The notes under the pieces were generated by a model. The model did no database searches, was not told the origin of the DNA, and saw only the letters and a program-made list of their open reading frames with translations. Shown piece after piece: positions 4,314 through 44,926 of a stretch of 64,000 nt of DNA. The stretch is from Roseiarcus sp. (GTDB taxonomy: Bacteria > Pseudomonadota > Alphaproteobacteria > Rhizobiales > Beijerinckiaceae). Location: positions 5,441-69,440 of the forward strand of contig JBEKBD010000001.1 of assembly GCA_050015575.1 (NCBI GenBank), in the 5' to 3' direction. Numbering within the stretch: position 1 is the stretch's first letter; each line of letters begins with the position of its first letter. The translations under genes were made by a program, and so were the position numbers.

Positions 4314-6809
<2,496 letters not shown>

Positions 6810-6867
6810 GACGCGAATATGGGGGGAAAGCGGCGCGGGGGGAAGGCGGAGAGAGAGGGGCCGCCGA

Positions 6868-7167: not shown

Positions 7168-7469
7168 AGTTTCATCTCCTTCAATTGGCGCGCCATGGCC
7201 TTCGCTCGCGCGATGTCCCGCTTCTGGGTGGACTTGTCGCCGCCAGTGAGCAGAACGAAAACCGTCGCCCCGTTTCGTGCGAAATAGACCCGATAACCCG
7301 CTCCGGCGTGGACGCGCATTTCGGAAACGCCCTCTCCGACCGGCTCGCAGTCGCCGAAGTTGCCGAAGGTCGCGCTGCGCAAGCGCGCCAAAATCCTCGC
7401 CTTCGCCTTCATGTCGGCGAGCTCCGACAACCATCGATCGAAGTCTGAAGACCGAACAAGGAGGTTCAT
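7164..7469 (-). CDS. Addiction-module killer, RelE/ParE-family toxin (HI1419-like)
   Basis: FDRWLSELADMKAKARILARL...GNFGDCEPVGEGVSEMRVHAGAGYRVYF...LLTGGDKSTQKRDI. ATG 7469 preferred because ATG 7487 lies inside the operator. Confidence 0.9.
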   Translation of the reverse strand: MNLLVRSSDFDRWLSELADMKAKARILARLRSATFGNFGDCEPVGEGVSEMRVHAGAGYRVYFARNGATVFVLLTGGDKSTQKRDIARAKAMARQLKEMKL

Positions 7470-7473
7470 GCCG

Positions 7474-7504
7474 GCATTAGTATCCATATGGATACATAAT
7501 GCAA
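7474..7504 (-). promoter_or_regulatory. TA promoter with palindromic operator
   Basis: Perfect 16-bp palindrome GTATCCATATGGATAC (7480-7495) extended by GCATTA/TAATGC. It lies between a TTGCAT -35 (7499-7504) and a TACTAAT -10-like element. Confidence 0.7.
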
Positions 7505-7575
7505 CCCCGTTTTACGCCCGCGTGTCCGCACATCTGGTAGGCGGATTTCCCCGCACAGGGGGACAGGGAGCGCGG

Positions 7576-8181
7576 CTAGAGCCACGGATGCGCGGCGGCG
7601 GCCTTCTTTTCGTGGGCCGCGATGGCGGGGGCCTCGACCATGGTCAGGCCGATGTCGTCGAGCCCCTCGAGCAGACAATGCTTGCGGAAGGCGTCGATGG
7701 CGAACGTGACGACGCCGCCGTCGGGACCGCGGATTTCCTGCGCCGCGAGGTCGACCGTCAACGTCGCGTTGGCGCCGCGGCGCGCGTCGTCCATCAGCTT
7801 CTCCAGGTCGTCGGGCGCGACTTTCACCGGCAGAATGCCGTTCTTGAAGCAGTTGTTGTAGAAGATGTCGGCGAAGTCGGTCGAGATCACGCAACGAATG
7901 CCGAAATCGAGCAGCGCCCACGGCGCGTGTTCGCGCGACGAGCCGCAGCCGAAATTGTCGCCGGCGACGATGATCTTGGCGTTGGCGTAGGCGGGCTTGT
8001 TGAGCACGAAGTCGGGGTTGGGCGAGCCGTCGTCGCGGTAGCGCATCTCGGCGAACAGGCCGGCGCCCAGCCCGGTGCGCTTGATCGTCTTCAGATATTG
8101 CTTGGGGATGATCATGTCGGTGTCGACATTGTCGATCTCGAGCGGCGCGGCGACGCCGGTCAACGTCGTGAATTTGTCCAT
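7576..8181 (-). CDS. leuD: 3-isopropylmalate dehydratase small subunit
   Basis: [56 protein letters not shown]. Confidence 0.97.
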
Positions 8182-8282
8182 CGCGCGGATTCCGCCATCC
8201 TGATAAGACTCTCGGCCGAAGCGTCTAGCAAAAGCGCGCCAGGGGGGCAAACGCCGCTCGTCTTTTTTCCAGGCTCCGTTTC

Positions 8283-9413
8283 ATGACCGCGTCCTCCCCC
8301 GCCGGCGCGCCCGGCGTGCTCACCATCGACCTCGCGGCGCTCGCCGCAAATTGGCGCCGGCTGGCGCGCCGCGCCGCGCCGGCGGAGTGCGCGGCGGTGA
8401 TCAAGGCCGACGGCTACGGTCTGGGCCTCGCCATCGTCGCATCGACGCTCTATCGCGCGGGCTGCCGCACGTTCTTCGTCGCCCATCTCGAAGAGGGACG
8501 CCGCGCCCGCGCGGCGCTGCCGCAGAGGGATGCGCGCCTCTACGCGCTCAACGGCTTGCAGAGCGACGCGGACCCGCAAGCCGACTACGCCGCGCTCCGC
8601 CTCGCGCCAGTAATCGGCAGCGCCGAGGAATTCGCGCGCTGGGCCGCCTTCGCCGCGACGCGAGCCGCGCCGCCGCCGTGCGCGCTGCATCTCGACACCG
8701 GCATGAACCGGCTCGGCTTCGCGTCTCTCGAGGACTTGCGCGCCGCGACGGCGCGCCATGGCGGAACCTGCGGCGCCGACCTGCTGATGAGCCATTTCGT
8801 TTCCTCCGAAGAGCCGGACAATCCGCTCAACGCGGCTCAGATCGCGCGTTTCGAGCAGGCGCGCGCGGCGTTTCCCGCGCTCGCCGCCTCGCTCGCCAAT
8901 TCCTCCGGATTGTTCCTGGGCCCGCGCCCCATGTACGACCTCGCCCGGCCGGGCTACGCGCTCTACGGCGGCAATCCGACGCCGGGCGCGCTCAATCCGA
9001 TGAAGCCCGTCGTCACGCTCGACATCGCCATCCAGCAGACGCGATGGATCGAGGCGGGCGAGAGCTGCGGCTACAACGGCCAATGGACGGCGCGCCGGCG
9101 CACGCGCCTCGCCACGCTGCTCGTCGGCTACGCCGACGGCTTGCCGCGCGGCGCCGGCGCGCTCGACGGACGCGCGGGCGCCGAGGCGGTCATCGCCGGG
9201 CGGCGCTGCCCGCTGGTCGGGCGCATGTCGATGGACCTGACCATCGCCGACGTCACCGATGTCCCCGAGGACGAGGCCCGGCCGGGCGATTTGGCGCGGT
9301 TGCTGGGCGAAGAGATCGGCGTCGACGAATTCGCGTCGCGATCGGGAACGATCGGCTACGTCGTGCTGACGAGCCTGGGGGCGCGCTACGCCAGGCGCAT
9401 CGTCGAGGGATAG
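8283..9413 (+). CDS. alr: Alanine racemase
   Basis: AVIKADGYG PLP lysine, LHLDTGMNRLG, MSHF, SLANS, RPGYALYG, GYADG, GRMSMD. Confidence 0.95.
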   Translation: MTASSPAGAPGVLTIDLAALAANWRRLARRAAPAECAAVIKADGYGLGLAIVASTLYRAGCRTFFVAHLEEGRRARAALPQRDARLYALNGLQSDADPQADYAALRLAPVIGSAEEFARWAAFAATRAAPPPCALHLDTGMNRLGFASLEDLRAATARHGGTCGADLLMSHFVSSEEPDNPLNAAQIARFEQARAAFPALAASLANSSGLFLGPRPMYDLARPGYALYGGNPTPGALNPMKPVVTLDIAIQQTRWIEAGESCGYNGQWTARRRTRLATLLVGYADGLPRGAGALDGRAGAEAVIAGRRCPLVGRMSMDLTIADVTDVPEDEARPGDLARLLGEEIGVDEFASRSGTIGYVVLTSLGARYARRIVEG

Positions 9414-9589
9414 GGATCGGCCGGCGAATCGTGATGGAAAGGGAGATGGCGCAATCGCGGCTCAGGCATGTCGACAAAGCCGAGCCGGCGCAGCATGAGC
9501 CTGAGGCCGACGGCCATCCGGGGATGTCGGGCCACATGATTGCGGTTGCGACTTTATCGATGGCGCGGCTTCCCTTTTGAGGACCCCCA

Positions 9590-10099
9590 ATGCTCAACGG
9601 CTGGGACAATTTCTTCATTTTGGCCGGTAGCGCGGCCGCGACGATGATCGGGCTGCTGTTCGTCGCCATCACGGTCGGCGCCCAAATGTCTACGCCGCAG
9701 GGATTAAATGCCACCCGCGCCTTCTTGACGCCGACGCTCATTCTTTTCGGCAGCGTGCTATGGCAGTGCTTGGCCTCGCTGGCGCCATGGCCGTCCGCGT
9801 GGCCGCTCGCGATCATTCTGGGCTCGGGCGGGCTGGTCGGCCTCGTGTTGCAAATTCACGTCGTCCTCATGCAGCGTAAGATCGATTTCGCCTCGCTCGA
9901 TTGGCTCGACTGGACTCTGTTTTCGCTCGCGCCGGCGCTCGGTTATGCGAGCCTGATCGCCGGGGCGACCGGATTGATCGCCGGGAAATCCTTCGCGCCC
10001 TACGCCATCGCGGGCGCGATCACGCTGTTGCTGTTCGCCGGCGTCTACGGCGCATGGGACCTCACGTTGTGGATCGCCAGGAACCGGGACAAGACCTAA
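9590..10099 (+). CDS. Uncharacterised multi-pass membrane protein (paralog 1)
   Basis: About 5 hydrophobic segments; N-terminal WxNFF...GSAAATMIGLLFVAITV; SD GAGGA upstream. Confidence 0.75.
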   Translation: MLNGWDNFFILAGSAAATMIGLLFVAITVGAQMSTPQGLNATRAFLTPTLILFGSVLWQCLASLAPWPSAWPLAIILGSGGLVGLVLQIHVVLMQRKIDFASLDWLDWTLFSLAPALGYASLIAGATGLIAGKSFAPYAIAGAITLLLFAGVYGAWDLTLWIARNRDKT

Positions 10100-10225
10100 C
10101 GGCGCGACCGCCCGCCGCGCCGCGTCGCCGACTCTGGAATTTCGGCGCGCGCCGCGCTAAGGGAGGCGAGCGAGCGAGAGCGGCGCGAAGCGAATCGGGT
10201 CGCCGTCGCCGGGAACGAAGCCGCC

Positions 10226-10444
10226 ATGAACAGACTGGAAAAGCCCCCGTCCGCCGCGGCGGAGGCGCAAGTGCAATATCTCGACGCCGACATTCGCGTC
10301 GTGCGTCCCGGCGGGTTCGTCCGTTGCGCCGTGACCGGCGCGCCCATCCCGCTCGACGAACTGCGCTATTGGAGCGTCGACCTGCAGGAGGCCTACGCCG
10401 GCCCCGAGGCCGTCCTCGAGCGCCTGCGCAGCCGGCGGCGTTGA
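10226..10444 (+). CDS. DUF2093 family protein
   Basis: EAQVQYLDADIRVVRPGGFVRCAVTGAPIPLDELRYWSVDLQEAY. Confidence 0.85.
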   Translation: MNRLEKPPSAAAEAQVQYLDADIRVVRPGGFVRCAVTGAPIPLDELRYWSVDLQEAYAGPEAVLERLRSRRR

Positions 10445-10573
10445 CATCGCGTTTCAGCGGTCCGAAGAACGCCTCGGGCTCGCGCCGTGCGAGCGGCGCG
10501 CCCGGCCTGCGGACGCATCCGACGCGCTCGGCGCTGCCGGCGTGAGGCGCGGCCTACAGCGAGGCGACGGCCC

Positions 10574-11077
10574 ATGCAGCCTTGGTCGCAGTTCTACGCC
10601 ACGATCGGCCCCGCATCGGCGGCGCTGCTCGGCTTGCTCTTCGTCGCCGTCTCGATCAACGCCTCGGCCGCGCTCGGCCCCGACGAGGCGGCATCCCGGC
10701 GCCTGACGGAACAGGCCTTCCAGAACTATCTCGCGGTGATGATGGTCGCGCTGTTGGCGCTGTTTCCCGCCATTAGCACGAGGACTTTCGGCGCGGTGAC
10801 CCTCCTCTGCGCCGCGGGCTGGTCGGTCTGGGTCGTCGTCCGCTTCGGTCAGACGGTCGCCCAGCGCCTGGAATGGGGGTTCTGGCTGCACGCCCTTCGC
10901 CGCCACGGCGCCTCGCTCGCCGGGTTCTCGATCCTGATGGTCGTCGCGCTACGCATGGCGTTGAACTGGGGCGCCGATTACAGTTGGCTTGCCGCCTCTA
11001 CGTTGGCGCTGCTGTTCTCGGCGACGACGGTCTCCTGGGAGCTGCTGGGGCGGATCGCCAATCGCAAGCCGGGATGA
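10574..11077 (+). CDS. Uncharacterised multi-pass membrane protein (paralog 2)
   Basis: MQPWSQFYATIGPASAALLGLLFVAVSIN, same N-terminal motif and C-terminal W as 9590-10099. Confidence 0.75.
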   Translation: MQPWSQFYATIGPASAALLGLLFVAVSINASAALGPDEAASRRLTEQAFQNYLAVMMVALLALFPAISTRTFGAVTLLCAAGWSVWVVVRFGQTVAQRLEWGFWLHALRRHGASLAGFSILMVVALRMALNWGADYSWLAASTLALLFSATTVSWELLGRIANRKPG

Positions 11078-11193
11078 ACCTTCCCACTCGCCGCCCGCCG
11101 CGACTTCGCCGAGGGCGAAGAGGCTCGTCGCCGTTCGCTTTTTCTCGCCGGTCGACAAAACGCGGCGAAGGCGCGCGCGGCGTGAAAAAAACT

Positions 11194-11218
11194 CCCTTCT
11201 CCCGCAAGGGGAGAAGGG
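11194..11218. terminator. Hairpin between convergent genes (CCCTTCTCCC-GCAAG-GGGAGAAGGG)
   Basis: 10-bp perfect stem preceded by an A-run at 11185-11191, so it could terminate minus-strand transcription. Confidence 0.5.
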
Positions 11219-11250
11219 GCGCGCCTCGTCTCGGACTGCGATGGCACCGC

Positions 11251-11592
11251 TCAGCTTTGGCCGGACTTGCCCACGATCGCCGGAAGATGCTGAGCCAGCA
11301 GATTGAGCGCGACGTTCGGGTCGACGCCGAAGTGTTGCGCGAGCTGCTTGACCTGATCGCTTCCCAGCGCCGCCTGGATCTGTTGCGGCGTGACGGTGAG
11401 ATTGGGGCCGTTGGCGAGCCAGGACTGGACTTGCGCGCCCAAGCCTCCCTGCTGCAATTGCGCCACCACGCCTTGCAGATCGCCGAGGTTGGTCTTCGCC
11501 AAGGCTGCCGGGAGCACGGCTTGCAGCTCCTCCGCGCCGATTTGGCCCAATGCGCTCTTGAGTCCGCCGGTCAAGTTGTCGAGAAGTCCCAT
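11251..11592 (-). CDS. YidB/DUF937 family protein
   Basis: MGLLDNL...LQQGGLGAQVQSWLANGPNLTVTPQQIQAALGSDQVKQLAQHFG...LAQHLP. Confidence 0.85.
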   Translation of the reverse strand: MGLLDNLTGGLKSALGQIGAEELQAVLPAALAKTNLGDLQGVVAQLQQGGLGAQVQSWLANGPNLTVTPQQIQAALGSDQVKQLAQHFGVDPNVALNLLAQHLPAIVGKSGQS

Positions 11593-11696
11593 GGTTCGCT
11601 CCGCTGGGCCGGCGCTGCGCCATCGCGGCCGGCGTGTACGATCATGTTGCCTGTCCATGCGCGGCCTGACAAGCCCAAGCCTGTCGCGACCAGGCC

Positions 11697-11733
11697 AAAG
11701 AGAAGGGCCGCCCCTTGCGGGAGCGGCCCTTCC
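11697..11733 (-). terminator. Rho-independent terminator candidate after the small ORF
   Basis: Minus strand AAGGGCCGC-U-CCC-GCAA-GGG-GCGGCCCUU followed by CUCUUU. Confidence 0.6.
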
Positions 11734-11784
11734 ATTGTCGCGACCACGCACAGATCGCTCGAGGTCTGGATCGCCTAGCGGCGA

Positions 11785-11859
11785 CTATGCGCGAAATTCC
11801 TGCGCACGGACAATGTTCCAGGTCTCGCGAAACTGGCATGGCGATTGACAATGAGACAC
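11785..11859 (-). CDS. 24-aa small ORF with 17-nt extended Shine-Dalgarno (rreB-like small mRNA)
   Basis: GAAAGGAGGTGATCCA-GTG start; peptide MSHCQSPCQFRETWNIVRAQEFRA; terminator downstream. Not in the ORF track. Confidence 0.65.
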   Translation of the reverse strand: MSHCQSPCQFRETWNIVRAQEFRA

Positions 11860-11983
11860 TGGATCACCTCCTTTCAGGTTGTTGACGACGCCGATCAAAA
11901 TAACGTGATTCGTCGATTTTCAAAGCCCGGATTTCGCGCATCGGCGATGCGTCGGCGGGATGGGGCGCCCAGACGCTCGGCGA

Positions 11984-13327
11984 TCACGCCGCCGCCTTCG
12001 CCACCGCGTCGCAGACGTCGTTGACCAGCGTGTCGACCAGGGCCGGATCGTCCGCCTCGGCCATGACGCGAATGACGGGTTCGGTCCCCGACGGGCGGAT
12101 GACCAGACGCCCCTTGGCGCCCAGCCGCGCCGTCGCCGCGGCGATCGCCTTGACCACCGCTTCGTCTTCGAGCGGGCGTCCGCTCTTGAAGCGCACGTTG
12201 CGCAACACCTGCGGCAGCGGGTCGAAGCGGCGGCAGACCGCGCTGACCGGCTTGCCCTGCTTTTGCACGACGGCGAGCACCTGCATCGCCGCCACCAGCC
12301 CGTCGCCGGTGGTCGCATGGTCGGTCAAAATGATATGGCCCGACGGTTCGCCGCCGACGTTGATGCCCTTCTCGACCATGCGCTCCAGCACGTAGCGGTC
12401 GCCGACCGCGGTGCGTTCGAGGCGAAGGCCGCGCTCGGCCAGCCGCCGCTCGAGCCCGAGGTTGGCCATGACGGTCGACACGACGCCGGGCTTAGCCAAG
12501 CGTCCGTCCGCCTGCCAGCTTTCGGCGATAACCGCGAGAATCTGATCGCCGTCGACGACGTGGCCCTTCTCGTCGACGATGATCATGCGATCCGCATCGC
12601 CGTCGAGCGCGATGCCGATGTCGGCGCGCATTTCCCGCACTTTCTGTTCGAGCGCCTCGGGAGCGGTCGAGCCGACGTCGAGGTTGATGTTGACGCCGTC
12701 GGGCTCGACGCCGATCTTGATCACTTCGGCGCCCAGCTCCCATAAAGCCTCGGGCGCCGTTCGGTAGGCGGCGCCGTTGGCGCAATCGATCACGACCCTG
12801 AGGCCGTCGAACGAAACCTCGCGCGGCAGCGTCCGCTTGGCGTATTCGATGTAGCGCGCCTGGACGTCGTCGATGCGCCGCGCCCGCCCGAGATCGGGCG
12901 ACTTGGCGAGCTTGGCGGACAGATCGCCGTCCATCAGCGATTCGATGCGCGCCTCGAATTCGTCCGACAGTTTGAAGCCGTCGGGGCCGAACAGCTTGAT
13001 GCCGTTGTCCTCGTAGAGGTTGTGCGAGGCGGAGATCATCACCCCGAGGTCGCAGCGCATCGAGCGCGTCAGCATCGCCACCGCCGGCGTCGGCGCCGGG
13101 CCGAGCAGCAGCACGTCCATACCGACCGAAGTGAAGCCGGCCACCAGCGCGTATTCGATCATATAGCCGGACAGGCGCGTGTCCTTGCCGATCACGACGC
13201 GGTGGCGGTGCTCGCCGTTCTTGAACGCCAGCCCAGCCGCTTGGCCGACCTTCAAGGCGAGTTCGGCGGTGATCTTGCCGTTCGCGCGGCCGCGAATGCC
13301 GTCGGTGCCGAAATACTTGCGCGCCAT
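11984..13327 (-). CDS. glmM: Phosphoglucosamine mutase
   Basis: [44 protein letters not shown]. Confidence 0.97.
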
Positions 13328-13601
13328 CTCCGCAAACCCTTCCGTCGGTCCCCCGGAGCCCGTTGCGACCGGCCTGCCTCGCCGCGCTCGAGGGTCCTGA
13401 CGACGAAGGCCCGCGTCCGTTGCGACCGGACGAGGCTCCCGCTGTTCTCAATAGCCTAAAACGCTATGGAATAAATTCAAAAATCGTTGCACATCGTAAA
13501 CGACGCCCGAGGCGCGGGAAACCCCGCTCCCCGCGCGCGCTTCGACCCGCCGCGGCCCAAAGCCGGCGGCGCTCGTCACGCGCGTTCGCGCCGCGTTGCG
13601 A

Positions 13602-18647: not shown

Positions 18648-19580
18648 ATGGCGACGCGCCGCCTGGATCAAACGAAGACGCCGCCGAGCCCGCCCCGCTC
18701 GCGCGGCTTCACGGCGTTCGGCGAGCGCGTCGAGGCCGCGCCGATCTCGCCGGGCCTCTATGTCGTGGCGACGCCGATCGGCAATCTCGCCGACGTCACG
18801 CTCAGGGCGCTGGCGACGCTGGCGGCGGCCGACGCGATCCTGGCGGAGGACACCCGCGTCTCGCGCCGTCTCTTGCAGCGTTACGAGATCTCCACGCCGC
18901 TCGTCGCCTATCACGAGCACAACGCGGCGAAGGTCCGGCCGCGCCTCATCGCGCGCCTCGCCGAAGGCGAAGCGCTGGCGTTGATTTCCGACGCCGGCAC
19001 GCCGCTGATCTCCGATCCCGGCTACAAATTGGCGGCGGAGGCCGTCGCGGCGGGCGTCGCGTTGACCAGCGCGCCCGGCCCTTCGGCGGCCCTGGCCGCG
19101 CTGACCAGCGCGGCGCTGCCGACCGACCGATTCTTCTTCGAGGGTTTCCTGCCGCCCAAGGGCGCGGCGCGGCGTGAACGCATCAACGCCCTGGCGGAGA
19201 TTCCGGCGACGTTGCTGTTCTACGAGGCGCCGAGCCGCCTCGCCGCCTCGCTCGCGGACCTCGCGGCCGAACTCGGGCCGCGGCCCGCGGCGGTCGCTCG
19301 CGAACTCACCAAGCTCCACGAAGAAACACGCCGGGGAACCCTCGCGGAACTGGCCGCCCATTACGCGGCCGAGGGGCCGCCCAAGGGCGAGATCGTCGTC
19401 GTCGTCGGCCCGCCGCAGGCGGCGCCCCGGCTCGACGAGGACGCGCTCGACGCCGAGATCGTCGAGGCGCTCGGCGCGCTGTCGGTCAAGGACGCGGCCG
19501 CCGCGGTCGCCGCGCGAATCGGCCTGCCGCGCCGCAAAGTCTACGCGCGCGCGCTGCTGCTCGCCGGCGCGCGGCGCTGA
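18648..19580 (+). CDS. rsmI: 16S rRNA (cytidine1402-2'-O)-methyltransferase
   Basis: [56 protein letters not shown]. Confidence 0.96.
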
Positions 19581-24440: not shown

Positions 24441-24470
24441 TTGCAGATAGTGCCCCTTTGGGGCATTATC
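24441..24470 (+). promoter_or_regulatory. higBA promoter with overlapping operator
   Basis: TTGCAG (24441-46)-N17-CATTAT (24464-69). Inverted repeat GATAGTGCCCC-TTT-GGGGCATTATC (one mismatch) spans the spacer. Confidence 0.7.
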
Positions 24471-24475
24471 GGTGT

Positions 24476-24820
24476 GTGGCGAAGCCGCTGCACACCGTTG
24501 CTGAGACCCCGATCTATCTTTCTCGCGCTGAGAAACTCATGAGCGAGAATGAGCGGGAAGCGGTCGTCGAACTCTTGGCGGCGAGTCCGGAAATCGGCGA
24601 TCTCATTCCCGAGACCGGGGGTCTTCGCAAGGTCAGGATTCCCCTGGCCGGTCGGGGAAAGCGCGGCGGGGCGCGTGTCATCTATTACTATTACGATGTA
24701 ACCTTGCCGATCTATTTGTTGCTTGTTTACGCCAAGAACGAGCGGGACGACCTGTCGAGCGCGCAGAAGGTCGTCTTGCGGGGACTCGTCAAAGCCATCG
24801 TCGCGCGGAGGCGATCATGA
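24476..24820 (+). CDS. higB: HigB-2/RelE-family toxin
   Basis: GDLIPETGGLRKVR...GRGKRGGARVIYYY...LLLVYAKNERDDLS. GTG 6 nt after the -10 (leaderless). Confidence 0.85.
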   Translation: MAKPLHTVAETPIYLSRAEKLMSENEREAVVELLAASPEIGDLIPETGGLRKVRIPLAGRGKRGGARVIYYYYDVTLPIYLLLVYAKNERDDLSSAQKVVLRGLVKAIVARRRS

Positions 24821-25113
24821 GACAGGCGCTTTTCAACGATCTCGTCGAGAGCCTCAAGCAGGCCGCCGCCCATGCCGGCGGCGAGGCGGTTCCCGGATTG
24901 CGCGTTCAGCCCGCGCCCGCCGCGGCCGACATCGTCGCCATTCGCCGGCAGGCCGGCCTCACGCGCAAGCAATTCGCCGCCATCCTGGGAACGGCGGTCG
25001 GCACGCTGCGAAAATGGGAAGACGGCACGCGTTCGCCAAGCGGCGCCGCGCGCACGCTTCTCTTGGTTCTCAAGCGCAACCCCAAGGCGGTCATCGAAGC
25101 GCTGGCGGCGTAA
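24817..25113 (+). CDS. higA: HigA-2-like XRE HTH antitoxin
   Basis: FNDLVESLKQA...DIVAIRRQAGLTRKQFAAILG...TLRKWEDGTRSPSGAARTLL. 4-bp overlap with the toxin. Confidence 0.85.
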   Translation: MRQALFNDLVESLKQAAAHAGGEAVPGLRVQPAPAAADIVAIRRQAGLTRKQFAAILGTAVGTLRKWEDGTRSPSGAARTLLLVLKRNPKAVIEALAA

Positions 25114-26373: not shown

Positions 26374-26655
26374 CTAATTGCACCGCATGGCGCAGCGCGT
26401 ATAGCCCCATGGGTTGACCCAGCAAACGCGATGCCAGTAGCAGGCGGGCCCCCCGCCCCAACCCCAGGGGCGATGCCAACCCCAGCCCCAGTAGTGATGG
26501 GGGTACCAGACGCGGTCGATCTGCGACGACGCCATCGGCTGTTCGAGCGAGGGCGAAGACAGCGTGAACGCCGAAGCCGATCCCGCCGAAATCGCCAGCA
26601 TCGCGGCGCCCGCGAGAGCGGCCAGGACTCCGCCCGTTAAAACGCGTGTGGACAT
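26374..26655 (-). CDS. Small secreted Trp/Gly/Cys-rich protein
   Basis: Signal peptide ending ASA-F; WGWGWHRPWGWGGG then CYWHRVCWVNPWGYTRCAMRCN (4 Cys); SD AAGGAGGA. Confidence 0.75.
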   Translation of the reverse strand: MSTRVLTGGVLAALAGAAMLAISAGSASAFTLSSPSLEQPMASSQIDRVWYPHHYWGWGWHRPWGWGGGPACYWHRVCWVNPWGYTRCAMRCN

Positions 26656-26967
26656 GAAATCCTCCTTTTTCACTCACTTGCGCAATCATGCATGGGCCGC
26701 ATGAACTCGAAATGAATAAATTGTGGCCGTCTTGGTTTTCACCGCGCGGCGAAATGGTATTGCCGCGCCGACTGGCGCACGACGCAATTCCGCCACGATC
26801 GATCCCCGGCTTTTTGGGCGGCTATATTTACCCTTCCTTAATCCTGGCGGCCGCTCGACGCGGCTGAAGCGCGAAAACCTCACGCGCGCGGCGATCTCGC
26901 GCGCCTTGCTCTGTTACGGTCTGGCGGCTGCGCCGGCGGGTCGGCCAGTACAGTCCTTTGAGGACGA

Positions 26968-27027: not shown

Positions 27028-27474
27028 TTAGGCGGCGATTTTGTAATTTGATGGATCGGACCCATCAATGATGATTGGGGGCGTCTCTGCACTCTGGATG
27101 CACCAGCCGGCCACCTCCTTGACGTCTGGAGTATCTGGAAGTTTCAGCGCCTGAATCGTATGCAGCCGAACAACCGTCTCCGCGTTCGCATCAATCGGGC
27201 ACTCTCCGCGCTCCCACCGGCTAACGGCCAGCGCCTCCCTGTGCAGCATGTCGGCTAGCTGAGCCTGCGTCATGCCCATTTCAGTCCGCAGGAACCGAAG
27301 CTCCTTGCCATTCATTGAGTTGCGGCGGGTGACAATCCCATGGGCGATGGCCTTATGCAGTCCGTTGATATTACGGATGATAATGCACTCTTCGCCGGCA
27401 TCATCCATCGGGAAGTCGACTCCCACAATGGTGACATTGTCGAGCCCGCTATCCGTATAACGGTAGTTGGTCAT
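27028..27474 (-). CDS. XRE HTH protein, putative MqsA-like antitoxin
   Basis: MTNYRYTDSGLDNV...INGLHKAIA...NGKELRFLRTEMGMTQAQLADML...VSRWERGE. Immediately downstream of the DUF4258 gene. Confidence 0.8.
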   Translation of the reverse strand: MTNYRYTDSGLDNVTIVGVDFPMDDAGEECIIIRNINGLHKAIAHGIVTRRNSMNGKELRFLRTEMGMTQAQLADMLHREALAVSRWERGECPIDANAETVVRLHTIQALKLPDTPDVKEVAGWCIQSAETPPIIIDGSDPSNYKIAA

Positions 27475-27521
27475 CGTGTTTCCTTCTCCGTCTCACCCGT
27501 TACATTGCAATAACGTCTACG

Positions 27522-27902
27522 CTATCGTTCGTCAGCCCACATCACCGTCACAATTTTCATTTGGAACCTTTCTGAATCGGGGATCGCCACAACTCTCACA
27601 GTTCTAGATCCAGAATTCGGACTACGGCTAACCATACTATATTTGTAGAAGCCGGGCCTAGTTGACACTAACGGGTCGTCAAGCACGAATCCCTGCTTCA
27701 AGATATACAACACATCACCGGTAAACAGTTCCCGATCGGACATTTGGTCTAAGGCATGACGCGTCCAGATTACAGTCAGGCTCTCATCAAGAGACATCCT
27801 CCTAATCGAATCTGTCGCGTCAGCAGGGGTCCATGGTTGCGGCTTGAATGGCGGCTTCGCGATTTTCACCGGGTCTCGTCCACGCGAGTCACTTATCACC
27901 AT
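27522..27902 (-). CDS. DUF4258 family protein, putative toxin (RelE/MqsR-like RNase)
   Basis: WTRHALDQMSDREL...DVLYIL..G...PGFYKY...RTVRVVAIP...KIVTVMW. AT-rich codons (TTA, ATA, AGG). Start uncertain. Confidence 0.75.
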   Translation of the reverse strand: MVISDSRGRDPVKIAKPPFKPQPWTPADATDSIRRMSLDESLTVIWTRHALDQMSDRELFTGDVLYILKQGFVLDDPLVSTRPGFYKYSMVSRSPNSGSRTVRVVAIPDSERFQMKIVTVMWADER

Positions 27903-28270
27903 GATAGGTACTCGGCACACATAAACACTCAAAACGGTTAACGCAAGCCTAAACTCGGCATCCCTAAAAACTGACCCTTGACGTGAATTAGGACGCCCGC
28001 TCCTCCGACTTAAGACAGCGCCGTTTGCGCGACCTCCACACTCTCGCACCTTTCACCTTCCCCTCGCCACCAATCGCCGCCTTCGTCTTTGCGGTCTCAG
28101 CGCGCGGGTGATGCGCACCACGACAAATTCTCTCGCGTGTTCGTCATGTTGCTATCTCTAGTTCCACATCGAGTGAACTGGATAGCCTATCGATGGGAAA
28201 CGATATTGCTCCAACAAAATTCGGACGCCCCTTCCTCGCTTACGACGGCGGCCGACCGTCCGCGCCACCC

Positions 28271-28843
28271 TCACCTTCGCCCCGCCGTCACCCCGAGCAA
28301 CTCGCCGAGGCGGTCGAGCGCGACGCGCAGGCGGTCGGCGACAATCGCGTCGGCGCGCCAGGGGGTGACGATCTCGGGCGCGAAGGCGCGACAGTCGCTC
28401 AAACGGCCGCCCTCGATGACGATGCGGGTGACGATCGGCCAGGCGGCCTCGCCGACGCGCTCGGCGGCGGCGCGCATCTTGTCGCGCGCGTGAAGCGCGA
28501 TTTCGCTCGCCGGCAAGCCGGCGCGGGGCCCCGGCGCTTTGACCCCGACGACGTCGGTCGCCACCGCGCGCAAGCAATCGAGCTCGGCGCGCCGATGCAG
28601 GCGCCGCAGCGCCTCGCCGATCAGCCAGCGGATGTCGTTGAGCCTGGCGTCGTGCGGCGCCAGCGCGCGGGTCGAGCGCATCACGTCGAAGGGATCGAGC
28701 AGGCGGCGCGACGAAGCGCCGCCGCGCTCGGCGGCCTGGCCGCTTTCCCTGGCGCGAGCGAGCCGTTCCGGCGTGGCGTCGAGCCGCTCCGGCGCCGGCC
28801 GATCCCCGGCCTTCGATCGCCTCGCCCTCGGCTTGGCGGTCAT
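28271..28843 (-). CDS. DUF6456-like protein (phage/GTA late regulator, Q/GafA/GafZ-like)
   Basis: ...GEALRRL...ALHARDKMRAAAERVG...IVTRIV...LRVALDRLGELLG resembles DUF6456 by eye. ATGA overlap with the upstream gene. Confidence 0.6.
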   Translation of the reverse strand: MTAKPRARRSKAGDRPAPERLDATPERLARARESGQAAERGGASSRRLLDPFDVMRSTRALAPHDARLNDIRWLIGEALRRLHRRAELDCLRAVATDVVGVKAPGPRAGLPASEIALHARDKMRAAAERVGEAAWPIVTRIVIEGGRLSDCRAFAPEIVTPWRADAIVADRLRVALDRLGELLGVTAGRR

Positions 28844-29061
28844 TGCGCCAACTCCGCGCAGAGTTGCGCCGGCGACGTGCAGTACGAGGCGACCGGCTCG
28901 CCGGTCAGGCGCTGCGGGATGGCGACGCTCTTCAGCTTCACGTCGGCGGGCGGATGGCGATGGACGCGCTTGAGATCGCGAAGATGGGCGGCGCAGGCGC
29001 TGACGGCTTGCTGGCGCTCGGTCTCGGACCTCGACGGGCGGCGGCGACGGCGGGCCTGCAT
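28840..29061 (-). CDS. 73-aa hypothetical protein, first gene of the leftward operon
   Basis: SD AAGGA; stop overlaps the next start; C-terminal SYCTSPAQLCAE motif. Confidence 0.6.
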   Translation of the reverse strand: MQARRRRRPSRSETERQQAVSACAAHLRDLKRVHRHPPADVKLKSVAIPQRLTGEPVASYCTSPAQLCAELAQ

Positions 29062-29116
29062 CGGCTTGATCCTTCTTGCTGCGGAGAGCGAGGGCGGGGC
29101 CGACGGCCGGGCGTGC

Positions 29117-29131
29117 GTTCACTCTTTGTTC
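29117..29131. promoter_or_regulatory. LexA (SOS) box, alphaproteobacterial type
   Basis: GTTC-actcttt-GTTC, exact GTTC-N7-GTTC, overlapping the predicted start site of the leftward promoter. Confidence 0.7.
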
Positions 29132-29133
29132 TC

Positions 29134-29162
29134 ATTTTCTGAACGTCCGCATAATCTGTCAA
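29134..29162 (-). promoter_or_regulatory. Sigma70-type leftward promoter
   Basis: TTGACA (29162-29157)-N17-GAAAAT (29139-29134). Confidence 0.65.
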
Positions 29163-29209
29163 GAAATATTTCTGATTTTCATGATTGCATTCATTCTGAA
29201 AAGCAGAAT
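29136..29209. promoter_or_regulatory. Putative operator array of the CI-like repressor
   Basis: TTCTGA at 29137, 29170 and 29194. The third forms the perfect inverted repeat ATTCTG-N5-CAGAAT (29193-29209). Confidence 0.5.
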
Positions 29210-29218
29210 AAATGGCGC

Positions 29219-29806
29219 ATGACCGTCGATTGGATTCGCGACGCCCTCAAAGAGACCGGCAAGACCCGCAGCGGCCTCGCCCGCGCGCTCGGGCGTTCGC
29301 CCTCCGCCGTCACCGACCTCCTCAACGGCTCGCGCCGCCTGCGCGCCGACGAGATCGCGGTTGCGGCCGCCTATCTCGGCGTCGAGCCGCCGCGCTTGGT
29401 CGGCGGCGGCCGGGCGCCGGCGCCTAGCGGCAAGGTGCCGCTGGTCGGCTACGTCGGGGCGGGCGCGGTCGCCCATTTCTACGCCGACGGCCAAGGCCCG
29501 TTCGACGAAGTGAGCGCGCCCGATGCGGCGAGCGCGAAGACCGTCGCGGTGCAGATTCGCGGCCACTCGCTCGGCGCGCTGTTCGACAACTGGCTGGTGT
29601 TTTACGACGACGTGCGCGATCCGCCCGGCGACGACCTCACCGGGCGCATGTGCGTATGCGGCCTCGCGGACGGGCGCGTGCTTATCAAGGCGCTGAAACG
29701 CAGCCAGATCCCGGGGCTGTGGATTCTGCTGTCGAACGCCGAGGCGCCGATTTACGATGTCGTGCTGAACTGGGCCGCGCTGGTGCGCGAAATGCGGCCG
29801 CGGTAA
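29219..29806 (+). CDS. CI-like repressor: XRE HTH plus S24 peptidase-like domain
   Basis: N-terminal HTH (RSGLARALGRSPSAVTDLLNGSRRLRADEI); VPLVGYVGAG; AVQIRGHSL (Ser) and VLIKAL (Lys). No SD, probably leaderless. Confidence 0.85.
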   Translation: MTVDWIRDALKETGKTRSGLARALGRSPSAVTDLLNGSRRLRADEIAVAAAYLGVEPPRLVGGGRAPAPSGKVPLVGYVGAGAVAHFYADGQGPFDEVSAPDAASAKTVAVQIRGHSLGALFDNWLVFYDDVRDPPGDDLTGRMCVCGLADGRVLIKALKRSQIPGLWILLSNAEAPIYDVVLNWAALVREMRPR

Positions 29807-29815
29807 AGGCCTTTC

Positions 29816-30988
29816 ATGTCGGCAAAGCCCATTTCAGCGCTCGAAATCGCGCGCGCGCTGATCGCCTTTCCCTCGGTGACGCCGGCCGACGCCGGCGCGC
29901 TGCCCTACGTGAAAACGCTGCTCGCCGAAGCCGGGTTCGCCGCCGAGATCGTCGCCTTCGCCGCGCCGGGGACGCCTTCGATCGACAATCTCTACGCGCG
30001 GTTCGGCCGCGCCGCGCCGAACTTCGTCTTCGCCGGCCACACCGACGTCGTCCCGCCGGGCGACGTCGCGCGCTGGCGCTTCGACCCGTTCTCCGGGGCG
30101 GTCGCCGACGGCCGGCTATGGGGCCGCGGCGCCTGCGACATGAAGGGCCCGGTCGCCGCCGCCATAGCCGCCGCGTCGCGCTTCGTTGCGCGCGGCCCGT
30201 TCAACGGCTCGATCAGCTTTTTGCTGACCGGCGACGAGGAAGGGCCGGCGGTCAACGGCACGGTCAAGCTGCTCGAATGGGCGCGCGCGCGGGGCGAACG
30301 TTTCGACCATTGCCTGCTCGGCGAGCCGACCGCTGCGACCGCGCTCGGCGACACGATGAAGAACGGCCGGCGCGGCTCGCTGACCGGCCGGCTGACGCTC
30401 CTCGGCAAGCAAGGCCACGTCGCCTATCCCACGATCGCCGACAATCCGCTGCGCCGCCTCGCCGCGGTTCTCGGGGCGCTCTACGAGCCCGCGCTCGACG
30501 CGGGGACGCCCGCCTTCGAGCGCTCCAACCTCGAGGTGATCGGGGTCGACGTCGGCAACCCGGCGACCAACGTCATTCCCGCCGAGGTCCGCCTCGTCTT
30601 CAACGTCCGCTTCAACGACCGCTGGACGCCCGAGACGCTTGCCGCCGAAATCGAACAGCGCCTCGCCGCCGCGATGCGCGGCGCGGCTTACAAGCTCGCC
30701 TTCGACCCGACCAACGCCGTCGCCTTCGCCACGCCGACCGGCGCCTTCACCGATCTCGTCCAGCGCGCGGCCGAAGAGATCACCGGGCGGCGGCCGAAGC
30801 TGTCGACCGGCGGCGGCACCTCCGACGCGCGCTTCATCAAGGATGCTTGTCCGGTGGTGGAGCTCGGGCCGATCGGCGCGACGGCCCACGCAGTCGACGA
30901 GCAGATCGCGATCGACGAGCTCGAGGCGCTGTCGCGCGTCTACGAACGGACGCTGGAGCTCTATTTCGGTGCAAGCGAGCGCGGCTGA
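29816..30988 (+). CDS. dapE: Succinyl-diaminopimelate desuccinylase
   Basis: SVTPADAGA, FAGHTDVVPPG, GRGACDMKG, TGDEEGPA, GRRGSL, GKQGHVAYP, GGTSDARFI. Confidence 0.96.
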   Translation: MSAKPISALEIARALIAFPSVTPADAGALPYVKTLLAEAGFAAEIVAFAAPGTPSIDNLYARFGRAAPNFVFAGHTDVVPPGDVARWRFDPFSGAVADGRLWGRGACDMKGPVAAAIAAASRFVARGPFNGSISFLLTGDEEGPAVNGTVKLLEWARARGERFDHCLLGEPTAATALGDTMKNGRRGSLTGRLTLLGKQGHVAYPTIADNPLRRLAAVLGALYEPALDAGTPAFERSNLEVIGVDVGNPATNVIPAEVRLVFNVRFNDRWTPETLAAEIEQRLAAAMRGAAYKLAFDPTNAVAFATPTGAFTDLVQRAAEEITGRRPKLSTGGGTSDARFIKDACPVVELGPIGATAHAVDEQIAIDELEALSRVYERTLELYFGASERG

Positions 30989-31070: not shown

Positions 31071-32486
31071 CTATCGTTCGCGAGCCGCAACGCTCTCCAG
31101 CCGAAGCGGCAAGCGGGTCGCGGCGAGGAAGGTCAAAGCGTGAAGGCCGCCGAGCAGCGCGAACGCCAAAGCGTAGGCGGTTGAAACCGAAGCGCCGGCG
31201 ACAGGCGATCCGAGCTTCCACGCCAGGACAGAAGCGCAAAGCGTCGTCATCGTCGGGCCGCCGAGACGCTGGACAATGTTGAGCGAGGTTGTCGCCATCG
31301 GCAGGTCATGGCGGCTGACCGACGCATAGGCGGCGGCCATCGACGGCAGCCCCACCGCGCCCATCCCCATCCCGCGGAGGAAAAGAGCGGGGAGAAACAC
31401 AATCAGGTCGAGACCGTGGATAGCGAGGACCGCCAGCGGCGCCGTGGCGAGGAAGGCCAGCAGCGCGCCGCCTGCGGACACTGGACGGTTGCCGAATCGC
31501 TCCGTTAACGCGCCCATCAGCGGGGTGGAGAACATCACGCCCATCCCCAGCGGCGCGAGCATCCATCCCATTTCGCCCGGCGCGCGACCGCACGCCTGAA
31601 TGAGAAAGGCCGGGATGAGCATCTGGCCGGCGAATAATCCGCCGTTCGACAGAAACTGCGTGACGGCGACGGTCGAAAAGACGTCGCTCTTGAATAGGCG
31701 CAGATCGACCAGCGCGTCGTCGCCCTTCCGCCGGGCAGTCCAAAGGAAGAGAGCGATCATCGCCGCGCCGACGGCGAAGTAGCCGCGGCCAGGCGCCTGG
31801 CCGATCCCCTCCGCGCCATAAAGGACCATCGCCAAACCGGGCGACAGCAAAGCCAGACCGAGCCAATCCAGACGCCGGCCCTTCGTCTCGTGGCGATCGC
31901 TGGGCAGGAACAACGCCGTCATCAGGATCGCGACGGCGCCGACCGGCAGATTGACCAGAAAGAGCCAGCGCCAGGACGCGTATTGCAGGATGGCGCCGGC
32001 GAAGACGGGGCCGAACACCGGCGCCAGCAGGACTGGGAAAGACATATAGCCCGCCACGCGCGCCATATGCTGACCCGCCGCCCGGGCGACCATCATCTGC
32101 GCCATGGGGGCCAGCAGACCGCCGCTGACGCCCTGCAAGACGCGGAACGCGATCAGCGACGGCGCCGACCAGGCGAGACCGCACAGCGCCGACGACACCG
32201 TGAAGGCCGAGAAGCACCAGAGATAGAGCGCCTTCGCGCCGATCCGGTCGACCAGCCATCCGTTCAGCGGCAGCACCAGGGTCAGCGCCAGCAGATAACC
32301 GCTGGTGACCCACTGGATGGTCGACAGATCGGCGTGCAAATCCGCCGCCAGATTCGACAGCGAGACGTTGACGATCGTCGCGTCGAGCTGTGACAGCAGC
32401 GCGCCGAACAGCGCGACGGCGGAGACTTTCCAGACGGAGGGGTCGAGCCGATGGGCGGGGTCGGCGTCCGCGCTCCTATCCGTCAC
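31071..32486 (-). CDS. DHA2 (EmrB/QacA) MFS efflux transporter
   Basis: SQLDATIVNVSL, WVTSGYLLAL, GWLVDRIG, FRVLQG, WRWLFLVNLPVG. GTG overlaps the upstream stop. Confidence 0.9.
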   Translation of the reverse strand: MTDRSADADPAHRLDPSVWKVSAVALFGALLSQLDATIVNVSLSNLAADLHADLSTIQWVTSGYLLALTLVLPLNGWLVDRIGAKALYLWCFSAFTVSSALCGLAWSAPSLIAFRVLQGVSGGLLAPMAQMMVARAAGQHMARVAGYMSFPVLLAPVFGPVFAGAILQYASWRWLFLVNLPVGAVAILMTALFLPSDRHETKGRRLDWLGLALLSPGLAMVLYGAEGIGQAPGRGYFAVGAAMIALFLWTARRKGDDALVDLRLFKSDVFSTVAVTQFLSNGGLFAGQMLIPAFLIQACGRAPGEMGWMLAPLGMGVMFSTPLMGALTERFGNRPVSAGGALLAFLATAPLAVLAIHGLDLIVFLPALFLRGMGMGAVGLPSMAAAYASVSRHDLPMATTSLNIVQRLGGPTMTTLCASVLAWKLGSPVAGASVSTAYALAFALLGGLHALTFLAATRLPLRLESVAARER

Positions 32487-32824
32487 GAGCCGGCGGGCGA
32501 ATTGCCGCCGTGAAACCGCCCGAAACCGCGCGCGGACACGACGCTGATAAGGAGGCCTCCCAAACCTGCGGCGACAATGTTGTCGGCGGCGCGGAAATCG
32601 AAGTCGCCCACGCGGACGACGAGAAGATAGGCGAGGACGAAGTTGGCGAAACCCCACAGCGCGTTCACGGTCGACGACGAGAGGCCTTGCCCCGGCGGTT
32701 TGGCGAACGGGCTCTGAAACGGCCGCCCCGTCACGCCGCTGACGAAATGCGGAACGGCGTTGGCGAGACAGGCGCCGCCGCAGAAATAGGACGCGTCGCT
32801 CAACCAATCCACGGTGACGGGCAT
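32483..32824 (-). CDS. Conserved small membrane protein
   Basis: GACLANAVPHFVSGVTGRPFQSPFAKPPGQGLSSSTVNALWG...FGRFHGG. Coupled to the MFS gene. Confidence 0.75.
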   Translation of the reverse strand: MPVTVDWLSDASYFCGGACLANAVPHFVSGVTGRPFQSPFAKPPGQGLSSSTVNALWGFANFVLAYLLVVRVGDFDFRAADNIVAAGLGGLLISVVSARGFGRFHGGNSPAGS

Positions 32825-32880
32825 CTGTGTCTCCCAAAGGTTCCAAAGATCTTGCTCGGCGGCGCCGACCGCTTTGCGTG

Positions 32881-33318
32881 TCAGGGGTCGCCGACCCGCC
32901 GGATGACAGGGACGGCGGCGGCGAGCGTTGTGAGCGCGGCGGGATCGAGCTCGGCGAGGACGCCGACCAGCCAGTTGCGCTTGGCGGCGCGATGCCGGAT
33001 TCTCACCGCCGCGCCCGCCTGGGTCAAAGCGAACAGCACCTGTCGCCGATCGGTCGGATGGGGCCGGCGCTCGACCAGTCCGTCTTGCTCCAGACTTGCG
33101 AGGATGACGCCCATCGACTGTGGCGTCATCGCCTCGGCGCGCGCCAGATCGGCGGTGGTCGTCGGGCCGCCCTGCTCGAGGCGGGACAAAGCGGCCATCT
33201 GGGAAATGGCCAGCTCGCTCGGATTGGCTTCCGCGCGCAGCCGTCGCAACAGCCTGCCGATCGCCGTCGTCAGGTCCGCGGCGAGACGGTCCAAGGAGGG
33301 GTCGGGTTCGACGGCCAT
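32881..33318 (-). CDS. MarR family regulator
   Basis: ISQMAALSRLEQGGPTTTADLARAEAMTPQSM...LEQDGLVERRPHPTDRRQV. Confidence 0.92.
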   Translation of the reverse strand: MAVEPDPSLDRLAADLTTAIGRLLRRLRAEANPSELAISQMAALSRLEQGGPTTTADLARAEAMTPQSMGVILASLEQDGLVERRPHPTDRRQVLFALTQAGAAVRIRHRAAKRNWLVGVLAELDPAALTTLAAAVPVIRRVGDP

Positions 33319-33343
33319 AACCGCATCGTAGACAACGGCAGGT

Positions 33344-33357
33344 AAACTTGCAAGTTT
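33344..33357. promoter_or_regulatory. Probable MarR operator
   Basis: Perfect palindrome AAACTTGCAAGTTT, 26 bp upstream of the marR ATG. Confidence 0.65.
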
Positions 33358-33405
33358 GTCTTCTAATTTGGCGAGTCGGCGCGGCATGGCCGGCCCCGCA
33401 TCGAT

Positions 33406-44219: not shown

Positions 44220-44926
44220 CGGGCGGGGAGACGGTCGCCGCGCAACCAGTGGCGGGCGCGCCGGCGGATTCGCGCGGCCAAGGGTTCGGCGGACGCGGCG
44301 TTGGCGTCGGCGCGATAGGTCCACACCCGCGCCGGCGGCAGGTTGCGCCAGATCGGCGCGCCGCAATGGGCGGAAAACCGCTTGGCGCAGGCCTGGCGCG
44401 GAATCGGCGACGCGAGGCCATAGGTGAACTGGACGAGAACGCCGTCCGGTCCCATCAGCGCGAAAGCGTCTTCGATCAGCTTGAGCCGCAGGGCGGGCGG
44501 CTGATTGAGCAACGGCAGGCTCGAAACCACCGCGGCGATCGGCCGTCCGGCGAATTCCGCCAGCGTGCGCTCGAGGTCGTAGGCGTCGCCCTGCACGATC
44601 CGGACCGCCGCGAAGCGCTGCGCGAGCAGGCGGCAGAAGCCATCGTCGTATTCGACCAGCACCAGGCGCTCGCGCGCGACGCCGCGTTCGATCAGGGCCC
44701 GCGTCACCGGGCCGGTTCCGGGGCCGAGCTCCACGACGAGGCCGTCGCCGCTGGGATCGACGAAGCGCGCCATCGCGCGCGCGAGGCGCCGCCCGGAGGG
44801 CGCCACGGCGCCGGTCAAGCGCGGGCTTTCGAACAAGGCCTTGAGGAAGCGCGTGTGGTCGCCGAGCGGCCGCTCGGCGCGGCGAGCGGCCAAATCGAAG
44901 GGAAATCTCGGCGAAGAATGGCCCAT
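44216..44926 (-). CDS. pmtA: Phospholipid N-methyltransferase
   Basis: [43 protein letters not shown]. Position after dnaJ as in rhizobia. Confidence 0.88.

Follow-up and report, generated by a model that had tools for sequence, protein, structure and literature searches.

The window analysed here is a 64,000-nucleotide stretch of contig JBEKBD010000001.1 from Roseiarcus sp., and within it lies a three-gene module in which the gene for a CI/LexA-type repressor diverges from a coupled two-gene operon encoding a 73-amino acid (aa) protein (p73) and a 190-aa protein (p190). We read this module, with a probability of roughly 55%, as a domesticated switch under a double lock, LexA plus a self-cleaving CI-like repressor, whose opening would free a GafZ-like protein to act in trans as an activator or antiterminator. 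The gated-switch part of this reading is more secure than the proposal that the output acts on a gene transfer agent (GTA). GafA and GafZ are direct activators of GTAs, and the gafYZ genes are kept off by the LexA-like repressor RogA (PMC9632790, PMC11150451, PMC9638019). GafZ has a sigma-like helix-turn-helix (HTH) and works as an antiterminator with NusA, NusG and NusE, and the DUF6456 domain forms the main body of GafZ as well as the C-terminal portion of GafA (PMC9638019, PMC11150451). RogA is described as having a LexA/CI-like domain without the key cleavage residues (PMC9632790).

The original prediction for this DNA, made from its letters, had described an orphan switch with no phage around it, and the divergent repressor and ATGA-coupled two-gene operon that it described are present (Table 1). 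The open reading frames (ORFs) of p73 and p190 share an ATGA overlap and have one Shine-Dalgarno (SD)-like motif each, AAGGA and GGAG; the same three genes appear in independent JGI gene calls on a metagenome contig with an identical p190. The spacer between the repressor gene and p73 is 157 bp long and AT-rich. The absence of a surrounding phage also held, as no phage gene was found within 10 kb on either side of the module and no structural, terminase or integrase PHROG matched any of the other 38 predicted proteins of the window, which are housekeeping products (dnaK, dnaJ, ftsZ, ddl, a mur ligase, dapB, glnD, gshB and others).

Table 1. Genes and predicted regulatory elements of the module (window coordinates)
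Feature	Position	Strand	Description
Repressor gene	29219..29806	+	195 aa, CI/LexA-type; N-terminal XRE HTH, C-terminal divergent S24-like domain
p73 gene	28840..29061	-	73-aa orphan, translationally coupled to p190
p190 gene	28271..28843	-	190 aa, all-helical (model), divergent DUF6456 superfamily member by profile and fold
Leftward promoter TTGACA-N17-GAAAAT	29134..29162	-	For the p73-p190 operon; -35 at 29162-29157, -10 at 29139-29134
Predicted LexA (SOS) box GTTCACTCTTTGTTC	29117..29131	.	GAAC-N7-GAAC on the operon strand
TTCTGA half-site	29137..29142	.	Overlaps leftward -10; in 25/58 loci
TTCTGA half-site	29170..29175	.	Beside leftward -35; inside a 12-bp palindrome AGAAATATTTCT (29162-29173) in the window
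Operator-like palindrome ATTCTG-N5-CAGAAT	29193..29209	.	Overlaps spacer and -10 of the repressor promoter
Putative repressor promoter TTGCAT-N17-ATAAAT	29185..29213	+	Ends 5 nt ahead of the ATG

The repressor begins with a Cro/CI-type HTH, as judged from its matches to Pfam HTH_31 (1.1e-7) and HTH_3 (6.6e-6) and from a PDB profile search with the repressor family, which matched the HTH domains of the 434, lambda and P22 repressors. Of the XRE-plus-S24 architecture proposed for it, the XRE half is therefore clear, whereas the S24 half is weak: Peptidase_S24 scored 13 bits against the window protein (E=0.086, below threshold), and a weak match (E<=1) was found in 13 of 23 relatives, the best at 2.5e-4. 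Even so, three observations point to a real S24-type domain. The CI-type family phrog_4 ('transcriptional repressor') covers residues 5-166 at 2.8e-13; in an alignment to E. coli LexA, Ala81-Gly82 falls on A84-G85 (VGA/GA), Ser117 on S119 (GHSL) and Lys157 on K156 (LIKALK); and all of these positions are conserved across 52 orthologues and kept in 22 of 23 members of a wider set, including two phage-borne homologues that have GDSL and K.

By sequence, the closest annotated relatives of this repressor are CI-type repressors of temperate alphaproteobacterial phages. It is 46% identical, over 97% of its length, to gp11 ('LexA repressor') of the temperate Mesorhizobium phage vB_MseS-P1, whose genome encodes an integrase and has gp11 diverging from an early operon of the cro/cII kind. 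A phage-like Rhodoplanes replicon of 53.7 kb has, at the corresponding position, an XRE regulator with 53% identity. A further hallmark of CI repressors, residence in a prophage whose lytic genes they control, is absent here: the window has no phage genes, and the chromosomal context is fixed across genomes.

The larger product of the leftward operon had been called DUF6456-like in the original prediction, which held that the lack of a DUF6456 hit would tell against it. Taken literally, that is the outcome for the window protein: Pfam and NCBIfam scans of p190 gave no match, PF20057 (DUF6456) did not appear even at E<=10, and the protein thus stays below the PF20057 gathering score of 26.3 bits. 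The relationship is nevertheless real at the level of the family. Sub-threshold PF20057 matches occur in 18 of 23 p190 orthologues (best E 9.4e-4). A profile of the p190 family retrieved only 127 proteins from 1.84 billion cluster representatives, and several of the distant full-length retrievals (25-34% identity) pass the DUF6456 gathering score with library-wide E values of 2e-9 to 2e-4 (P0328, P0337, P0349, P0352 and P0361). When the p190 family was compared with these DUF6456 relatives, hhalign returned a probability of 99.8% (E 1e-29) over 170 of 190 residues, for a comparison set that came from the profile's own retrievals, though Pfam recognises those proteins independently.

Structure prediction led to the same family. 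An AlphaFold2 model of p190 from a wider alignment with distant relatives is all-helical, with a mean pLDDT of 77 and a core above 90 (an earlier model from close orthologues alone, with a pLDDT of 56, was too poor), and the top Foldseek matches of this model in BFVD have a probability of 1.0, some of them being annotated as DUF6456 and belonging to an uncultured Caudovirales phage and to Roseobacter phage RDJL Phi 1. Therefore, by profile and by modelled fold, p190 is a divergent member of the superfamily of DUF6456, GafZ and the C-terminal part of GafA, and the kinship to GafZ and GafA claimed for it stands on both comparisons. By analogy to this family, p190 is predicted to be a transcription activator or antiterminator. 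The sole PDB sequence match to the p190 profile was an inovirus coat protein, which was judged to be a chance match.

Relatives of p190 at 65% and 53% identity sit in phage-like contigs of IMG/VR, which argues that the gene family circulates in phages of this clade; p190 had no tblastn match among 50,697 phage and 72,556 plasmid records. In the first contig (L070, IMGVR_UViG_3300037200_000120, 590-2148), a 245-aa p190-like gene of 65% identity is ATGA-coupled to a DNA methyltransferase-like ORF. The second (L071, IMGVR_UViG_3300049255_000564, 1840-13484) is a prophage end that encodes a CI/S24 repressor (1840-2607), members of the phage-only families phrog_2045 and phrog_29525, an integrase (12309-13484) and the 53%-identity relative, a 148-aa p190-like gene (8040-8486) that follows an ATGA-coupled 66-aa gene.

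The small protein p73 is probably a clade-restricted partner subunit of p190. Its orthologues share a basic N-terminus, the motif HLxDLKRAHxxPPxDV and a C-terminal motif, S(Y/W)CTSPAxLCAEL, with two conserved cysteines. No Pfam, NCBIfam or PHROG family matched it, and its 623 homologues are all annotated as 'hypothetical' and all of the Roseiarcus type. At L068, a p190 relative of 34% identity follows a small gene that has no relationship to p73, which makes the p73-p190 pairing specific to the clade. We infer that the two proteins form a complex solely from their translational coupling and co-inheritance. GafY is a small DNA-binding protein that resembles DnaA domain IV and is encoded immediately ahead of GafZ or fused to it, and neither Bac_DnaA_C nor any HTH was detected in p73 and 23 orthologues at E<=10; p73 thus has no GafY similarity and the pair is not a canonical gafYZ.

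These features bear on whether the module is simply this lineage's orthologue of the RogA-GafYZ circuit, a cis-linked version that would control a GTA of the type found in Rhodobacter capsulatus (RcGTA) through a non-cleaving repressor relieved in stationary phase, as in Caulobacter, with GafY and GafZ then activating and antiterminating the GTA genes. The overall plan agrees, with an HTH plus S24-like repressor and a DUF6456-type gene behind a small one; RogA homologues have been reported in 819 of 1331 alphaproteobacterial genomes, and in Hyphomicrobiales gafZ-like genes often come after a small gene and are flanked by an HTH regulator. Against this, p73 does not resemble DnaA domain IV and p190 falls below the DUF6456 cut-off that canonical members pass, so that the module is not a clean GafYZ member; nor is it a clean RogA match, because the repressor retains residues that align with the cleavage site and dyad reported to be missing in RogA. 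On this one published feature the protein is CI-like rather than RogA-like. In addition, its operator differs from the GGAA-N4-TTCC of RogA; of the synteny described for Hyphomicrobiales gafYZ (sufE downstream, mucR or an HTH regulator upstream), an HTH regulator is adjacent, but the flanks are dapE/truA and yebC and neither sufE nor mucR; and a LexA box is present. On these grounds, which set the module apart from RogA, GafY and GafZ as they are described in the literature, we consider a plain RogA-GafYZ orthologue unlikely.

The regulatory signals of the module were analysed by aligning the spacers of 28 loci and scanning 58 loci for motifs. The claimed promoter TTGACA-N17-GAAAAT is present upstream of the operon, with 10 of 12 consensus matches; it is the sole sigma-70-like match in 27900-29900, where 0.1 is expected, and its -35 TTGAC is kept in 52 of the 58 loci. 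The three predicted TTCTG operator-like sites were also located, as TTCTGA at 29137, 29170 and 29194. The third is half of the perfect palindrome ATTCTG-N5-CAGAAT, which has a single exact match in the window. A palindrome lies near the repressor start in 28 of 58 loci, and in the spacer alignment its half-sites vary in pairs (TTCTG..CAGAA, TTCGG..CCGAA), while a C[AC]GAA half-site is found within 16 nt of the -35 in 43 of 58. The palindrome is probably the autoregulatory site of the repressor.

The repressor gene had been proposed to lack an SD and to be leaderless, and no SD was found ahead of its ATG. Its putative promoter falls below the threshold of the consensus scan; the spacing of the -10-like hexamer fits a leaderless mRNA. 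In the near clade this hexamer is fixed at 5-7 nt from the repressor start codon, while in a more distant sub-clade the repressor has a longer 5' leader with a clear SD. The fixed spacing where a leader is absent, together with an SD where the leader is long, suggests that the repressor mRNA is leaderless in the clade of the window.

The best-conserved element of the spacer is one that the original prediction had missed, an exact GTTC-N7-GTTC repeat. GTTCN7GTTC is the SOS box of Rhizobiales and Rhodobacter. It is also the SOS box of Caulobacter (PMC9578287). The repeat begins 2 nt past the leftward -10, so that the predicted transcription start falls within it. Of 58 orthologous loci, 50 have it without a mismatch and 7 more with one, always just after the -10, and it has survived both in spacers that are otherwise diverged and in loci whose promoter region has given way to a luxI gene. 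Since a lone match is at chance level, it is this positional conservation that constitutes the evidence for a LexA box. With an alphaproteobacterial SOS box conserved over its start site, the p73-p190 operon belongs to the predicted SOS regulon, which suggests that DNA damage would switch the operon on. Two further exact GTTC-N7-GTTC matches lie in the window, at 44426-44440 (between pyrF and dnaJ) and at 19336-19350, a count at chance level.

The repeat over the leftward start site could instead be bound by the local repressor, or by p73 or p190 in an autoregulatory loop, in which case the inducing signal would be unrelated to SOS or would act through the CI-like repressor only. The motif is short enough to occur about twice per 64 kb by chance and was judged against the consensus of another genus, and GafY autoactivates gafYZ in Caulobacter. 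Yet the repeat matches the published alphaproteobacterial SOS box exactly and occupies the classical repressing position at a start site; furthermore, dimers of XRE-type proteins normally read inverted repeats, and a separate palindromic operator exists. A non-LexA reading of the repeat is accordingly improbable.

The module as a whole is a fixed, vertically inherited unit of the core chromosome of Roseiarcus-type soil bacteria, located between dapE and yebC. A synteny scan of one genome per species covered 63 loci that encode a p190 relative; one is from the type strain Roseiarcus fermentans DSM 24875 (L054), and nearly all the others belong to metagenome-assembled genomes (MAGs) of Roseiarcus and allied Hyphomicrobiales. 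The order truA - dapE - repressor and, divergently, p73 - p190 - (small secreted protein) - yebC was found in about 55 of these 63 species-level genomes, so the module is not peculiar to one strain. The families of the repressor (666 clusters), p190 (618) and p73 (623) are nearly equal in size, which fits co-inheritance. Pairwise dN/dS against the window was 0.175 (repressor), 0.33 (p190) and 0.39 (p73), compared with 0.32 (dapE) and 0.11 (yebC); codon bias compresses dS in these high-GC genomes, so the values are meaningful only relative to such neighbouring genes, and on that scale purifying selection acts on the three genes much as on the housekeeping genes around them.

In metatranscriptome contigs from peat and bioreactor samples, which are too sparse for mapping start sites, the 3' end of the repressor gene was covered in 4 of 4 runs and p190 almost not at all, giving weak support to a state in which the repressor is on and the operon is normally silent. 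One MAG carries the module twice on a single contig (L025 and L059, CAWAIS010000001.1, 5.97 Mb), and the two blocks are 99.9% identical over more than 3 kb. In the second copy the repressor is truncated and both dapE and truA are missing. The repetition reflects either a segment that was duplicated recently or an error of assembly.

Other genes have settled next to the module. In about 20 related genomes a gene for a LuxI-type acyl-homoserine lactone synthase (Pfam Autoind_synth 6e-39) stands beside p73-p190 on the same strand, either just upstream of p73 (L012, L017, L018, L026, L057, L062), just downstream of p190 (L024, L031, L037, L041, L049, L058) or 0.4-3 kb downstream (L020, L021, L039, L040, L045, L059). 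In L024 luxI is followed by a LuxR gene (Autoind_bind + GerE), and in L012 luxI and a methyltransferase gene take the place of the usual promoter region, with a GAAC-N7-GAAC-like box kept at one mismatch; the window has no luxI. In Rhodobacter, quorum sensing controls RcGTA through gafA, and the linkage of luxI to the operon may be functional in a similar way, or the spot may merely be an insertion hotspot.

A small gene with a signal peptide (26374-26673, - strand) encodes a 99-aa protein with a Trp/Gly/His-rich, Cys-containing C-terminus (..HHYWGWGWHRPWGWGGGPACYWHRVCWVNPWGY..) and no family match. Its orthologues are found downstream of p190 in most loci (for example, L001 6827-7120), and ancestrally the gene lay on the same strand about 300 bp past p190. 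No consensus promoter or terminator was found between the two genes in L001, and the 99-aa protein gene could be read through from the p73-p190 operon.

The ancestral order is interrupted in the window by two later insertions. An MFS transporter gene and a MarR regulator gene (31071-33387, - strand) stand between dapE and truA, and represent a lineage-specific insertion because dapE and truA are adjacent in most related genomes. The other insertion lies between p190 and the secreted-protein gene and combines a toxin-like gene of the DUF4258 family (27522-27881; Pfam 1.6e-8) with a gene for an MqsA-like HTH antitoxin (27028-27474; TIGR03830 1e-10), both on the - strand. This pair sits in a low-GC patch at about 27.0-28.0 kb (53% GC versus 68%), occupies the same place in a Methylocapsa MAG (L043) and is not found in most relatives. 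Between grpE and yebC (24458-25113, + strand), a RelE-family toxin gene (24458-24820) overlaps an XRE/MqsA-like antitoxin gene (24817-25113), the latter also being found in L009 at 96% identity.

These neighbours give some colour to the idea that the operon encodes a damage-induced effector, such as a toxin, an abortive-infection module or a cell-cycle inhibitor, within a defence or addiction island that uses a DUF6456-like fold: two toxin-antitoxin pairs are close by (24458-25113 and 27028-27881), the spot tolerates insertions, and p73 is an orphan with no predicted function. We regard this as very unlikely: the homology of p190 to the GafZ/GafA C-terminal family extends along the whole protein, those members of the family that have been characterised are transcription factors, and the module is inherited vertically in a fixed core context and is not patchy in the manner of defence islands. 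A functionless remnant of a prophage immunity region, to which the close phage and prophage relatives of both repressor and p190 might point, is scarcely credible, since the three genes are intact and without decay in the same context in about 55 species-level genomes, have dN/dS values of 0.18-0.39 like those of housekeeping neighbours and keep their regulatory motifs; the earlier view that the module is not just debris is upheld on the same grounds.

Taken together, we propose that the double-locked switch would operate as follows. In the off state, the repressor, made from an autoregulated and probably leaderless mRNA, would occupy the TTCTG/CAGAA sites over or beside the leftward -35 and -10 and control its own back-to-back promoter through the palindrome, while host LexA would sit on GAAC-N7-GAAC over the start site; the two proteins together would keep p73-p190 silent. 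Upon DNA damage, RecA filaments would stimulate LexA and the local repressor to cleave themselves, leaving the strong consensus promoter free to fire. The coupled products p73 and p190 would then form a complex that, by analogy to GafZ and GafA, could work through RNA polymerase to activate or antiterminate transcription at unlinked loci, with a GTA cluster or other co-opted phage genes as candidate targets. Of this scheme, the sequence comparisons show the gene content, the homologies, the conservation of genes and motifs and the purifying selection, whereas we infer that LexA and the repressor bind, that the repressor cleaves itself, that its mRNA is leaderless and that p73 and p190 form a complex, as well as the nature of the target. 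The fullest version, in which the module is an SOS-triggered master switch for a GTA or another co-opted phage function, with LexA and a cleavable CI gating a GafZ-like antiterminator and the 73-aa protein replacing GafY, is offered as a tentative and rather doubtful extension.

Several observations weigh against the double-locked switch or its proposed output. With 2.2 exact GTTC-N7-GTTC matches expected in 64 kb, a single one carries no significance of its own, and the box was matched to the published Caulobacter consensus rather than to recA or lexA of the same genomes. The CAGAA/CCGAA half-sites are kept mainly in the sub-clade nearest the window, and two near-clade repressor orthologues have a GTG start, which is unusual for leaderless mRNAs. 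For the repressor, the S24 domain is too divergent for the Pfam cut-off and matched no LexA or CI chain of the PDB by sequence, and one orthologue has Gly in place of Ser. Among PDB structures, Foldseek returned no significant neighbour of the p190 model, the best E being 1.2 and sigma-factor chains appearing only at about 5; the biochemical role of p190 comes from family analogy, because the window protein has neither a direct Pfam match nor a PDB fold match. Since p73 is unrelated to GafY, the DNA-targeting mechanism of GafYZ is not simply transferable. Finally, no GTA cluster or other target was identified, the search for phage structural genes having covered the 64-kb window, and a literature search returned no paper linking Roseiarcus with GTAs.

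The GTA activators GafA and GafYZ and the repressor RogA are recent discoveries. To our knowledge, no natural signal that lifts RogA repression in Caulobacter has been described, and LexA is connected to GTA only indirectly in Rhodobacter. If the module is an SOS-triggered GTA switch, it would provide a direct molecular link from DNA damage to GTA-type induction. The module is a naturally simplified, cis-linked version with a readable input logic, namely a LexA box plus a repressor with self-cleavage residues, and has a new small partner protein. Because R. fermentans DSM 24875 is cultivable, the opening of a GafZ-type switch by DNA damage is directly testable. If the output is not a GTA, the module would be a phage-derived secondary regulator of the SOS response. 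The locus also illustrates how a phage immunity region can shrink to three genes and be retained over a family-level evolutionary span.

Compared with GafYZ of Caulobacter crescentus and GafA of Rhodobacter capsulatus, the module shares the arrangement of a small protein followed by a DUF6456-type helical protein of about 190 aa, a dedicated LexA/CI-like repressor, here predicted to bind the core promoter, and a location away from phage structural genes. Unlike in these systems, a GTA is a candidate target only; p190 is divergent and below the Pfam cut-off, the module has an orphan partner, the 73-aa p73, in the place of a DnaA domain IV-like GafY, its repressor gene is adjacent and divergent, not unlinked, and a LexA box lies on the promoter. 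RogA (CCNA_00080) likewise combines an N-terminal HTH with a C-terminal LexA/CI-like domain and represses a gafZ-type operon at the core promoter through short GAA/TTC-containing repeats, as is predicted here; by the published description of RogA, however, the two differ in the Ala-Gly, Ser and Lys positions, which are kept in the Roseiarcus protein, as well as in operator (TTCTG-N5-CAGAA here versus GGAA-N4-TTCC) and length (195 versus 213 aa).

Lambdoid CI systems and gp11 of vB_MseS-P1 offer a second parallel, in which an XRE-S24 repressor diverges from the operon that it represses across overlapping back-to-back promoters; the probable autoregulatory operator and the probable leaderless repressor mRNA, as from lambda PRM, are further points of resemblance to CI. 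In contrast to those phages, there are no integrase, replication, lysis or structural genes here, the controlled operon has two genes, and host LexA is an apparent co-repressor. In SetR/SetCD of SXT-type integrative and conjugative elements and in the LexA-co-repressed phages GIL01 and CTX, too, a master activator is silenced by a self-cleaving CI-like repressor and/or LexA and SOS is the trigger, but those circuits reside in, and act on, their own mobile element, whereas this one is stand-alone and chromosomal and the activators are unrelated. What would be new in the Roseiarcus module is the combination of a double lock, on a switch that stands alone and is inherited vertically, with a GafZ-like output and a small partner protein of a new kind.

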